A DNA stretch of 64,000 bases from Escherichia coli (GTDB lineage: Bacteria; Pseudomonadota; Gammaproteobacteria; Enterobacterales; Enterobacteriaceae). The notes under the pieces were generated by a model. That model was given only the letters and a program-made list of their open reading frames with translations, was not told the DNA's origin and ran no database searches. A program made the translations under genes and the position numbers. Positions 25,209-28,094 of the stretch are shown here, piece after piece. Numbering within the stretch: the first letter of the stretch is position 1; each line of letters starts with the position of its first letter. The stretch lies in the NCBI RefSeq assembly GCF_016903815.1, contig NZ_CP069973.1. The stretch is one strand, 5' to 3'.

Positions 25209-25808
25209 ATGCTCTATATCTTTGATTTAGGTAATGTGATTGTCGATATCGACTTTAACCGTGTGCTGGGAACCTGGAGCGATTTAACGCGTATTCCGCT
25301 GGCATCGCTTAAAAAGAGTTTTCATATGGGGGAGGCGTTTCATCAGCATGAGCGTGGGGAAATTAGCGACGAAGCGTTCGCAGAGGCGATGTGTCATGAG
25401 ATGGCTCTACCGCTAAGCTACGAGCAGTTCTCCCACGGCTGGCAGGCGGTGTTTGTCGCGCTGCGCCCGGAAGTGATCGCCATCATGCATAAACTGCGTG
25501 AGCAGGGGCATCGTGTGGTGGTGCTTTCCAATACCAACCGCCTGCATACTACCTTCTGGCCGGAGGAATACCCGGAAATCCGTGATGCTGCTGACCATAT
25601 TTATCTTTCGCAAGATCTGGGCATGCGCAAACCTGAAGCGCGAATTTACCAGCATGTTTTGCAGGCAGAAGGTTTTTCCCCCAGCGATACGGTCTTTTTC
25701 GACGATAACGCCGATAATATAGAAGGAGCAAATCAGCTAGGCATTACCAGTATTCTGGTGAAAGATAAAACCACCATCCCGGACTATTTCGCGAAGGTGT
25801 TATGCTAA
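25209..25808 (+). CDS. yihX: HAD-family alpha-D-glucose-1-phosphate phosphatase
   Basis: 199 aa from ATG 25209 ([15 protein letters not shown] - HAD motif I DxG). Confidence 0.9.
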
Positions 25809-26674
25809 AAACCATCCATGAAAAAGCCAGGTATCGTACCCGTCCGCTATGGGCCTGGCTGAAACTACTCTGGCAACGCATTAATGAGGACAACATGACC
25901 ACCCTGGCAGGTAATCTTGCCTATGTGTCGTTGCTCTCATTAGTGCCGCTGGTTGCCGTTGTTTTTGCGCTTTTTGCCGCTTTTCCCATGTTCTCAGACG
26001 TTAGTATCCAACTGCGTCACTTTATTTTTGCCAACTTTCTCCCTGCCACTGGCGACGTTATCCAGCAATATATCGAACAATTTGTTGCCAATTCCAACAA
26101 GATGACCGCCGTTGGGGCGTGCGGGCTGATCGTCACGGCGTTATTGTTGATGTACTCCATCGATAGCGCGTTGAATACCATCTGGCGCAGTAAACGAGCG
26201 CGACCAAAAATTTACTCGTTTGCCGTGTACTGGATGATTTTAACGCTGGGGCCGCTGCTGGCAGGGGCCAGTCTGGCGATCAGTTCCTATTTGCTCTCCC
26301 TGCGCTGGGCGAGCGATCTCAATACTGTCATCGACAATGTGCTGCGTATTTTTCCGCTGCTGTTGTCGTGGATCTCCTTCTGGTTGCTGTACAGCATTGT
26401 TCCTACCATCCGCGTACCTAACCGCGACGCGATTGTCGGCGCGTTTGTCGCTGCACTCCTGTTCGAAGCAGGAAAGAAAGGTTTCGCGCTTTATATCACC
26501 ATGTTCCCGTCATATCAGCTCATTTACGGCGTGCTGGCGGTGATCCCCATTCTCTTTGTTTGGGTCTACTGGACATGGTGTATCGTCTTGCTTGGCGCGG
26601 AAATTACTGTCACTCTCGGGGAATACCGCAAATTAAAACAAGCTGCTGAACAAGAAGAAGACGACGAACCATGA
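25802..26674 (+). CDS. yihY: YihY/BrkB-family inner membrane protein (formerly rbn)
   Basis: 290 aa, multiple TM segments; start overlaps yihX stop. Confidence 0.9.
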
Positions 26675-27108
26675 TTGCATTAATTCAACGCGTAACCCGT
26701 GCCAGCGTCACCGTGGAGGGAGAAGTGACGGGTGAAATTGGCGCGGGACTTTTGGTGTTATTGGGTGTCGAAAAGGATGACGACGAACAGAAAGCAAACC
26801 GTCTGTGCGAGCGTGTACTCGGCTACCGCATCTTTAGCGATGCCGAAGGCAAGATGAATCTCAACGTGCAACAGGCGGGCGGCAGTGTACTGGTGGTTTC
26901 CCAGTTTACCCTTGCCGCAGATACCGAACGGGGGATGCGCCCAAGTTTCTCCAAAGGCGCATCACCGGATCGCGCAGAGGCGTTATATGACTATTTCGTC
27001 GAACGCTGCCGTCAGCAAGAGATGAACACGCAAACAGGACGCTTCGCTGCGGATATGCAGGTATCGCTGGTCAATGATGGCCCCGTGACATTCTGGTTGC
27101 AGGTATGA
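26671..27108 (+). CDS. dtd: D-aminoacyl-tRNA deacylase
   Basis: 145 aa [33 protein letters not shown]...; ATGA overlap with yihY. Confidence 0.95.
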
Positions 27109-28094
27109 GCCAGCTTCCAGGGTTGTCACGGGAAACAAGAGAGAGTATCGCTATGTATCACCTTCGGGTTCCACAAACAGAAGAAGAATTAGAGCGTTAC
27201 TATCAGTTTCGCTGGGAAATGTTGCGTAAGCCCCTGCATCAACCGAAAGGTTCGGAACGCGACGCGTGGGATGCGATGGCGCATCACCAGATGGTCGTCG
27301 ACGAGCAGGGTAATCTGGTGGCGGTAGGCCGACTGTATATTAATGCCGACAATGAAGCGTCTATTCGCTTTATGGCCGTTCATCCCGACGTGCAGGACAA
27401 AGGGTTAGGAACGCTGATGGCGATGACCCTCGAATCTGTGGCGCGTCAGGAAGGTGTTAAGCGCGTGACCTGTAGCGCCCGCGAAGACGCGGTGGAGTTT
27501 TTCGCCAAGCTGGGGTTTGTTAATCAGGGAGAAATCACCACGCCAACCACCACGCCGATTCGCCATTTTTTGATGATTAAACCTGTCGCCACTCTGGATG
27601 ATATTTTGCATCGCGGCGACTGGTGCGCCCAGCTTCAGCAGGCGTGGTACGAACATATCCCGCTAAGCGAAAAAATGGGCGTGCGCATTCAGCAATATAC
27701 CGGGCAAAAATTTATCACCACCATGCCGGAAACCGGCAATCAGAATCCGCATCATACGCTGTTTGCCGGGAGTTTATTCTCGCTGGCTACGCTCACCGGT
27801 TGGGGGCTTATCTGGCTGATGCTGCGTGAACGCCATCTGGGCGGAACGATTATTCTGGCGGATGCGCATATTCGCTACAGCAAGCCGATTAGCGGTAAAC
27901 CTCATGCGGTAGCCGACCTCGGTGCCTTAAGCGGCGATCTCGACCGTCTGGCGCGCGGGCGCAAAGCGCGGGTACAAATGCAGGTCGAAATCTTTGGCGA
28001 CGAGACGCCGGGTGCAGTGTTTGAAGGCACGTATATCGTTCTGCCCGCGAAGCCATTTGGCCCGTATGAAGAGGGCGGGAACGAAGAAGAGTAG
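27105..28094 (+). CDS. yiiD: GNAT acetyltransferase / YiiD_C thioesterase-domain protein (FabY)
   Basis: 329 aa; ATGA overlap with dtd. Confidence 0.9.

Follow-up and report, generated by a model that had tools for sequence, protein, structure and literature searches.

Gene content and layout of the operon

Positions 25,209–28,094 of the 64,000-nt stretch of Escherichia coli DNA analysed here (contig NZ_CP069973.1 of assembly GCF_016903815.1; hereafter, the window) carry the genes yihX, yihY, dtd and fabY (also named yiiD or madA), together with the signals listed in Table 1. The first-pass annotation had described four ORFs encoding a phosphatase, a membrane protein, Dtd and YiiD; their positions are correct at the sequence level, and the identities are confirmed by matches to NCBIfam and Pfam profiles. 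YihX matches the equivalog model NF006991 over its full length (404.7 bits, cut-off 295, covering 1–199 of 199) and a Pfam HAD model. YihY matches NF002457 (474.7 bits, cut-off 307), TIGR00765 ("yihY_not_rbn") and Pfam PF03631 (204 bits), and Dtd matches the equivalog TIGR00256 over 1–145 of 146 (256.5 bits, cut-off 101.5) and Pfam PF02580. FabY, the function of which has been described (PMC8666670), has the two-domain architecture PF00583 plus PF09500 and carries the N-x-N-P-H-H catalytic loop as NQNPHH (residues 212–217, long-form numbering); this loop coincides with N214 and H216, variants of which are reported to have reduced decarboxylase activity (PMC13353551). An Rfam scan of positions 24800–28700 at E ≤ 1 gave no match, nor did a PDB sequence search with the neighbouring 617-aa ORF.

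Table 1. Positions of genes and signals in and around the operon
Feature	Position	Strand	Description
Promoter-like block upstream of yihX	25150..25178	+	TAGCCA (25150-25155), 17-nt spacer, TACAGT (25173-25178)
yihX Shine-Dalgarno (SD)	25197..25203	+	AAGGAGG, strong; anti-SD duplex -11.6 kcal/mol
yihX	25209..25808	+	HAD-family alpha-D-glucose-1-phosphate phosphatase, 199 aa; same coordinates in K-12 and PGAP
yihX stop/yihY start overlap	25802..25808	+	7 nt, ATGCTAA; from ORF coordinates
yihY	25802..26674	+	BrkB/YihY-family inner-membrane protein, 290 aa
yihY stop/dtd start overlap	26671..26674	+	4 nt, ATGA; from ORF coordinates
dtd	26671..27108	+	D-aminoacyl-tRNA deacylase, 145 aa
dtd stop codon and 44-nt dtd-fabY spacer	27105..27152	+	fabY codons 1-16 in K-12; SD-like AAGAGAGAG at 27137-27145
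fabY (yiiD/madA), best-supported CDS	27153..28094	+	GNAT domain and malonyl-ACP decarboxylase hot-dog domain, 313 aa
G+C-rich hairpin just past fabY stop	28101..28124	+	10-bp stem, -19.6 kcal/mol, z -2.09; followed by poor U tract (AUUCUUUC)
Counterpart of K-12 Rho-dependent termination region	28215..28225	+	About 125 nt past fabY stop; mapped to the window

The operon is an ordinary one that has already been catalogued for E. coli. The K-12 transcription unit yihXY-dtd-yiiD (fabY) of RegulonDB and EcoCyc has the same genes, order, strand and junction sequences as the window, and the RegulonDB unit is also quoted in PMC4421995. K-12 and the window are ~97% identical across the operon region, with no substantive difference within the operon. 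We found the region in 5,425 of 5,426 complete E. coli genomes, and a comparison of 80 gammaproteobacterial loci showed that the gene order is conserved across Enterobacterales. With a recognised transcription unit and a conserved gene order, the earlier reading of the four genes as one operon is supported. Junctions are co-directional and measure −7, −4 and +44 nt (or −4 for the last, with the K-12 fabY start), too short for a terminator plus a promoter. The anatomy, protein identities, conservation patterns and SD contrast reported below come from this analysis, and the transcription unit, the ribosome-profiling start site and the Rho region from the literature; the coupling mechanism and the promoter are those that we infer.

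Transcription signals

A consensus scan found no + strand promoter inside the operon, with counts at or below shuffle expectation. The only internal terminator-like site was a weak 5-bp one in fabY, and such counts were no higher than in shuffles. In K-12, DirectRNA-seq window coverage is similar along the operon (173/119/125), with a Rho region past fabY. K-12 data also show weak signals within two of the genes, for Rho in yihY and for a 3′ end in yihX, so transcription of the operon is not perfectly uniform. The SMRT-Cappable-seq supplements have no entry for the operon's genes.

Sequence upstream of yihX was long enough for comparison in 62 loci, and in 50 of these the core CCGCTACAGT of a TTTcCCGCTAcAGT block occurs with 0–1 mismatch ~38–44 nt before the yihX ATG. 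The block is present regardless of which gene lies upstream, and that gene's terminator often precedes it. It agrees with the sigma-70 consensus at 8 of 12 positions, which is under the scan threshold, and its −10 element may be sigma-S-like; readings of it as a sigma-32 or sigma-E promoter, considered by eye, were unsupported. Its position and conservation suggest that it is the operon promoter. Since a terminator scan detected no clear + strand terminator in the 98-nt csqR-yihX gap, some read-through from csqR may also enter the operon. The yihX SD is strong not only in the window but across loci (mean −9.1 kcal/mol, 61 loci). A GTG start at 25188 was rejected, because no SD precedes it (+0.9 kcal/mol) and the protein begun at ATG 25209 fits the equivalog model exactly.

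At the other end, the hairpin just past fabY is a candidate weak intrinsic terminator; K-12 Term-seq has no 3′ end annotated to yiiD/fabY. It is the last conserved element ahead of a variable region, and in other E. coli IS200C (28126–28130) and IS1 (after 28128) are inserted right behind it. An islet had been described as beginning directly after the fabY stop codon. This is approximately right, except that the hairpin comes first, and the low-GC variable region and insertions begin from ~28126–28130, about 30 nt past the stop. Sequence shared with K-12 continues to 28574; the variable region is larger in the window strain than in K-12, which lacks 28575–32833. The Rho-dependent region in Table 1 corresponds to K-12 position 4078563 (+), with a Rho score of 6.27 and p = 2.8e-27 (Adams et al. 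2021, Supplementary file 2).

fabY most likely starts downstream of the dtd stop codon

The K-12 MG1655 RefSeq annotation contains all three overlaps exactly as the first-pass annotation gave them, the third being 4 nt at 27105–27108 between dtd and fabY. PGAP gives the same first two overlaps but a fabY start 48 nt further downstream, at 27153, leaving a 44-nt spacer. The ATGA at 27105 and the long ORF (27105–28094) are indeed present; the best-supported start, however, is ATG 27153, which is Met17 of the K-12 protein. Amino-acid conservation of FabY across species begins exactly at Met17 ("MYHLRVP"), downstream of a conserved AGAGAG-type purine block that forms an SD. The SD energy is −5.1 kcal/mol for Met17, compared with −3.4 kcal/mol, at zero spacing, for ATG 27105. 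Codon-position diversity is flat over the 48-nt "extension" (0.17/0.26/0.26), as against 0.06/0.04/0.36 in the flanking coding sequence, and in many species the stretch upstream of Met17 contains stop codons or lacks a start codon. The modelled GNAT domain begins at residue 19 (PMC8666670), and a published tetracycline ribosome-profiling (TetRP) data set lists "yiiD +48 ATG, 1. new site" (PMC4909307 supplement). Thus yiiD is itself a listed member of the "new site" class of Nakahigashi et al. 2016, which comprises over-extended annotated starts; here the longest-ORF start had produced an apparent overlap with the upstream gene. Unlike the TetRP correction, the K-12 RefSeq record retains the long form. 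The TRAINSPOTTER N-terminomics supplements and Fijalkowski 2024 have no entry for the operon's genes, and the dtd/fabY junction is at least 99% identical in 5,235 E. coli genomes, so that there are no natural frameshifts to exploit. We conclude that fabY most likely begins at ATG 27153, 44 nt past the dtd stop, and that the dtd/fabY overlap is most likely the product of an over-long start annotation.

Met17 might be the main start of two, with ribosomes that finish dtd also reinitiating at the overlapping ATG to give a minor extended FabY or merely a translated spacer, in which case the sequence of the N-terminal extension would be unimportant. We regard this as unlikely. Low-level use of ATG 27105 is conceivable because, where dtd ends in A/G/T-TGA, the fabY frame is in register in 6 of 8 lineages compared with ~1 in 4 otherwise (~p = 0.02, a weak hint given that the lineages are related), and because dtd-fabY indels within Enterobacteriaceae are multiples of three. 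NTGA is retained in several lineages, flat codon-position diversity would fit a translated but unconstrained peptide, and many genes have two initiation sites (Nakahigashi et al.). Nonetheless, TetRP places yiiD among new sites and not among genes with signal at both sites, and a spacer carrying an SD explains the region fully.

It is slightly less likely again that all four genes are chained by stop/start overlaps and that reinitiation at the dtd stop yields a 329-aa FabY beginning with ATG 27105. The K-12 start lies there, the biochemical papers use 329-aa numbering (N214, H216), about 22 Enterobacteriaceae species have the ATGA and an open in-frame stretch with 3n indels only, and A/G/T-TGA at the dtd stop tends towards the fabY frame. 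All this has to be set against the main TetRP initiation signal at +48, the PGAP start at Met17, 16 extra codons with neither a coding-type substitution pattern nor conserved amino acids, the many species with a stop codon or no start codon upstream of Met17, and an ATG at 27105 with no usable SD. We rejected the open frame as evidence of a coding extension, since the third frame is equally stop-free.

Overlaps at yihX/yihY and yihY/dtd are consistent with reinitiation

The 7-nt yihX/yihY and 4-nt yihY/dtd overlaps are real: K-12 and PGAP agree on both, NCBIfam models match the proteins over their whole length, and no alternative start exists. The −7 form at yihX/yihY occurs in 20 other loci, all within one block of Enterobacteriaceae (L003–L029; Citrobacter, Enterobacter, Kluyvera and relatives), outside which the junction is instead ATGA (−4), TAATG/TGATG (−1) or a gap. 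The ATGA at yihY/dtd is kept in 44 of the 64 gammaproteobacterial loci that have yihY next to dtd, and the last YihY codon takes 12 different forms there. This exact −4 overlap spans sampled Enterobacterales, Vibrionaceae (Photobacterium, Vibrio), Pasteurellaceae (Aggregatibacter) and Zophobihabitans, and the YihY tail is variable. Short overlaps as such are no more than chance expectation, as a spacing of −8 to +6 nt occurs in 24% of co-directional E. coli gene pairs (PMC10666635); the cross-species persistence of the yihY/dtd ATGA, in contrast, is beyond chance.

Ribosome-binding signals vary with the overlap. In a cross-species comparison uncorrected for phylogeny, the yihY SD is −0.8 kcal/mol where the gene overlaps yihX and −5.7 kcal/mol where it is separated (p = 3.6e-8); the corresponding values for dtd relative to yihY, likewise uncorrected, are −3.9 and −5.8 kcal/mol (p = 5e-4). 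In E. coli the yihY SD is −3.9 kcal/mol, and the region before the dtd start is A/G-rich and unstructured (z +1.46), with an SD that is nearly absent (−1.9 kcal/mol). A weak SD with an overlap and an SD with a gap would agree with termination-reinitiation coupling. Phylogeny and the coding constraints that act on the upstream gene both confound this contrast.

Stop/start distances of −8 to +6 nt define the range for coupled pairs, within which fall yihX/yihY (−7) and yihY/dtd (−4) but not dtd/fabY if the start is Met17 (+44). Tight coupling by overlap, as suggested previously for all three junctions, is therefore plausible on sequence grounds for the first two. For dtd/fabY it is not plausible, because the best-supported fabY start is 44 nt away from the dtd stop and has a conserved SD of its own. 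At such a distance reinitiation was all but lost in tested E. coli gene pairs, where a gap of 38 nt almost abolishes it (PMC10666635).

We consider it improbable that the overlaps arose passively, through genome compaction and drifting stop codons, with independent initiation of every gene and no functional coupling: such overlaps are very common, one of five tested E. coli overlapping pairs (bioBF) showed no coupling, and dtd could be initiated de novo and independently of an SD from its A-rich unstructured leader, but the other four pairs were strictly coupled (PMC6728339), the exact −4 yihY/dtd overlap persists across the four groups named above despite the variable YihY tail, and an SD emerges where the overlap is lost.

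Discussion

Taken jointly, the probable explanation is a housekeeping operon with reinitiation at yihY and dtd and a fabY gene started separately at 27153. Transcription would begin at the conserved promoter-like element just upstream of yihX, and the strong yihX SD would recruit ribosomes de novo. At yihY and dtd the SD is weak or absent and the start codon overlaps the stop codon of the gene before it (ATGCTAA, ATGA); most translation of yihY and then of dtd would therefore come from ribosomes that finish the upstream gene and reinitiate in place. Such reinitiation would tie yihY and dtd output to translation of yihX and keep the mRNA covered against Rho. fabY would be translated from the same mRNA without overlap coupling, from an ATG with its own conserved purine-rich SD, and the transcript would end soon after fabY, at the hairpin, at a Rho-dependent site, or at both.

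Known termination-reinitiation pairs from studies in 2019 and 2023 resemble yihX/yihY/dtd in having co-directional ATGA-type overlaps and a weak or variable SD in the upstream gene; in those pairs, the last nucleotides of the upstream gene alone are needed. Here, in contrast, we infer coupling from the sequence, the products are not known as subunits of a common complex, and yihX/yihY has the less common −7 overlap, for which the last residue of YihX has to be Cys or Trp. The four disparate functions joined in the operon, singled out in the first-pass annotation, are unremarkable, since in ~70% of the E. coli gene pairs at short distance the products are not subunits of the same complex (PMC10666635).

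The operon itself matters little: the standard E. coli databases already list it with its gene functions and overlaps, and short overlaps rank with the most common gene arrangements in bacteria. One practical consequence is that fabY in the K-12 reference record is probably 16 codons too long at its 5′ end, which would make its overlap with dtd spurious, and published FabY/MadA residue numbering follows this long form. The pattern of overlap without an SD and gap with an SD across species would be a clean natural illustration of termination-reinitiation coupling. Because the SD-less exact yihY/dtd overlap persists while the YihY C-terminal tail varies freely, YihY and Dtd might be made in fixed proportion as proteins that work together, for example in D-amino acid disposal at the membrane; we consider this very doubtful, and a literature search for a link between YihY and Dtd found none. 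If YihY does work with Dtd, this would be the first functional context for YihY; the yihY-dtd junction, being so deeply conserved, offers a small lead to its function.

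Organization and conservation of the operon

Reading the ORF table and raw sequence, we recovered four co-directional ORFs with shared nucleotides, exactly as the first-pass annotation had described them (table). The gene identities it proposed were upheld by NCBIfam and Pfam: YihX is a glucose-1-phosphatase (NCBIfam NF006991, 404.7 bits, full length), YihY a BrkB/YihY-family inner-membrane protein (NCBIfam NF002457, Pfam PF03631), Dtd a D-aminoacyl-tRNA deacylase (NCBIfam TIGR00256) and FabY (YiiD/MadA) a GNAT domain fused to a hot-dog domain (Pfam PF09500). The PF09500 domain was shown to be a malonyl-ACP decarboxylase (MadA) by Whaley et al. 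2021 (PMC8666670). The operon region is core, being found in 5,425 of 5,426 complete E. coli genomes.

Operon genes, shared nucleotides and flanking signals (window coordinates)
Feature	Coordinates	Strand	Basis
yihX	25209-25808	+	ORF table and raw sequence
yihY	25802-26674	+	ORF table and raw sequence
dtd	26671-27108	+	ORF table and raw sequence
yiiD/fabY, long ORF	27105-28094	+	ORF table and raw sequence
yihX/yihY shared ATGCTAA	25802-25808	+	
yihY/dtd shared ATGA	26671-26674	+	
dtd/long-ORF fabY shared ATGA	27105-27108	+	
Putative promoter, TAG(T/C)CA-N17-TACAGT (here TAGCCA-N17-TACAGT)	25150-25178	+	Cross-locus conservation
G+C-rich hairpin, 10-bp stem, after fabY stop	28101-28124	+	-19.6 kcal/mol, z -2.1

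For comparison, we took 80 loci from a Dtd scan (one genome per species; Enterobacterales, Vibrionaceae, Aeromonadaceae, Pasteurellaceae and Orbaceae), used tblastn to find yihX, yihY, dtd and fabY in each, and examined the gene junctions by script. The cluster lacks yihY, with yihX directly 5' of dtd, in Pectobacteriaceae (Dickeya, Pectobacterium, Brenneria) and Morganellaceae (Photorhabdus, Xenorhabdus, Providencia, Morganella); the loci of this type are L031-L033, L035, L038, L041, L042, L045, L047, L053, L061 and L063. Vibrionaceae and Aeromonas lack yihX at the dtd locus, and Pasteurellaceae and Orbaceae keep yihY-dtd alone.

Transcription

In RegulonDB, the four genes make up one transcription unit, yihXY-dtd-yiiD (PMC4421995), in agreement with the proposal of a single operon. 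K-12 read counts across it are alike in 800-nt windows (173, 119 and 125; PMC7815308). A consensus scan found no promoter on the + strand within the operon, promoter- and terminator-like counts there showed no excess over shuffles, and an Rfam scan of the region gave no match.

Of the 62 loci whose upstream sequence is long enough, 50 carry a promoter-like block, with core CCGCTACAGT of the motif TTTcCCGCTAcAGT, at ~38-44 nt 5' of the yihX ATG. The block is kept irrespective of the upstream gene, often downstream of an upstream terminator, and CCGCTACAGT is invariant within it across most Enterobacterales; in the window, it is the putative operon promoter. Its -10 element may resemble the sigma-S type. 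Since the spacer itself is conserved, the block may include a regulator site or reflect a non-canonical sigma preference. Read-through from csqR into the operon is possible.

The hairpin after fabY has a poor U tract; in K-12, a strong Rho-dependent region (score 6.27) lies 125 nt past the fabY stop (Adams et al. 2021, PMC7815308). The same study reports, within the K-12 operon, a weak, low-abundance RNA 3' end in yihX, 129 nt 5' of the yihY start (4076017; window ~25673), and a weak Rho region in yihY (score 2.06; 4076400, window ~26056), which would fit a degree of polarity if ribosomes translate yihY poorly.

The region downstream of fabY

The low-GC variable region, or islet, was previously placed at the last stop codon of the operon. 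It does begin just past the operon, but ~30 nt after the stop and behind the hairpin, as the following features indicate. G+C falls from ~0.55 to 0.36-0.41 directly after the hairpin. IS200C in closely related genomes and IS1 in strain VE-T9 (after 28128, with a deletion reaching yiiF) share an insertion point just past it (28126-28130). K-12 homology runs to 28574, and what K-12 lacks is thus 28575-32833. Only 329 of 5,426 E. coli genomes contain at least 80% of 28095-32900.

The fabY-fdhE interval (28126-34000) is a mosaic variable region, whose variant breakpoints (30391, 30494 and 32370) fall on or near a direct repeat of ~105 nt (30391-30494 and 32207-32311, 87.6% identical). A 617-aa ORF (28471-30324, +) in the low-GC stretch, with a CX5R-like motif, CKSAKDRT, matched nothing in Pfam, NCBIfam or the PDB sequences; in K-12, all but its first ~100 nt is gone. 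In near-identical genomes, PGAP annotates this ORF as two pieces, a pseudo 'hypothetical protein' and a 'transposase', a split that is apparently a misannotation. A ~84-nt segment repeated around the small genes yiiE and yiiF (33149-33232 and 33588-33670, ~79-81% identity) suggests local duplication.

The start of fabY

Two of the three proposed overlaps, yihX/yihY and yihY/dtd, are real, but the dtd/fabY overlap hinges on the annotated fabY start. The curated K-12 MG1655 record has all three. PGAP annotation of identical sequence in E. coli genomes starts fabY 48 nt downstream, which leaves 44 nt between it and dtd and shortens the protein to 313 aa (WP_001297068.1); this start is ATG 27153, Met17 of the 329-aa long form.

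Conservation of FabY begins abruptly at Met17, the preceding 16 residues being unconserved across species, and the Vibrionaceae N-terminus at this position is MF(R/K)L(I/V)TP. In many species the upstream frame is closed by a stop within a few codons or lacks a start codon, so that Met17 is the sole possible start there. Nearly all loci have a purine-rich block (AGAGAGA, GGAGAA, AAGGGG or GGAGGG) ~7-9 nt 5' of the Met17 ATG, where the mean anti-Shine-Dalgarno duplex energy is -5.6 kcal/mol, versus -2.0 at the overlapping ATG. Among 20 Enterobacteriaceae sequences sharing one spacer length, nucleotide diversity at codon positions 1/2/3 is 0.17/0.26/0.26 in the 48-nt extension, versus 0.06/0.04/0.36 in the first 96 nt after Met17 and 0.06/0.03/0.36 in the last 96 nt of dtd; hence, the extension evolves unlike coding sequence. 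Its open frame was rejected as proof of coding, since the third reading frame is equally stop-free.

Initiation sites were located by Nakahigashi et al. 2016 with ribosome profiling under tetracycline inhibition (PMC4909307). Their supplementary table has the entry 'ECK3881 yiiD + 4075520 48 ATG ... 1. new site', and 'yiiD ATG 48' is listed in Figure S5; coordinate 4075520 (U00096.2) maps to the annotated yiiD start + 48, window 27153. According to the main text, 39 of 67 re-examined genes had their clear signal chiefly at the new site, and we take category 1 to be this class.

Minor reinitiation at ATG 27105 is unlikely, though weakly hinted at. Where dtd ends in (A/G/T)TGA, the fabY frame tends to match that triplet: it does so in 6 of 8 lineages that are roughly independent, and in ~1/4 of other loci. 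Spacer indels within Enterobacteriaceae are multiples of three; however, the register signal is weak (about p = 0.02, with related lineages).

Overlaps and probable translational coupling

The exact -4 ATGA of yihY/dtd occurs in 44 of 64 loci with adjacent genes, including Photobacterium, Aggregatibacter and Zophobihabitans, while 12 different final YihY codons occur and the acidic tail is of variable length, which points to the arrangement, not the peptide, being under selection. Among sampled loci, the -7 form of yihX/yihY is confined to an Enterobacteriaceae block (L003-L029); other lineages have ATGA, TAATG/TGATG or gaps. The 7-nt overlap demands a last YihX codon TGN (Cys or Trp). This codon is TGC in the window (25805-25807), and every species with the 7-nt form has a C-terminal Cys, probably an overlap by-product rather than a functional residue.

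Across loci, Shine-Dalgarno energies are weaker at overlapping than at separated starts, both for yihY (-0.8 versus -5.7 kcal/mol, p = 3.6e-8) and for dtd (-3.9 versus -5.8 kcal/mol, p = 5e-4), with kinship ignored in both tests. Window values are -11.6 kcal/mol for yihX, -3.9 for yihY, -1.9 for dtd, and, for fabY, -3.4 at the first ATG (at zero spacing) and -5.1 at Met17. The dtd leader is unusually unstructured (z +1.46). This picture fits published E. coli data, in which coupling was strict for four of the five overlapping pairs assayed (PMC6728339) and reinitiation all but vanished at a gap of 38 nt (PMC10666635).

The mechanism that we consider most probable would have ribosomes load de novo at yihX and pass by termination-reinitiation into yihY and then dtd, with fabY initiated independently. 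A spacing of -8 to +6 nt is found in 707 of the 2,987 co-directional gene pairs of E. coli (24%), and the products of ~70% of pairs in this range are not partners in one complex (PMC10666635); two successive overlaps between genes of unrelated function are thus ordinary. The public record already contains the operon, its overlaps and the corrected fabY start.
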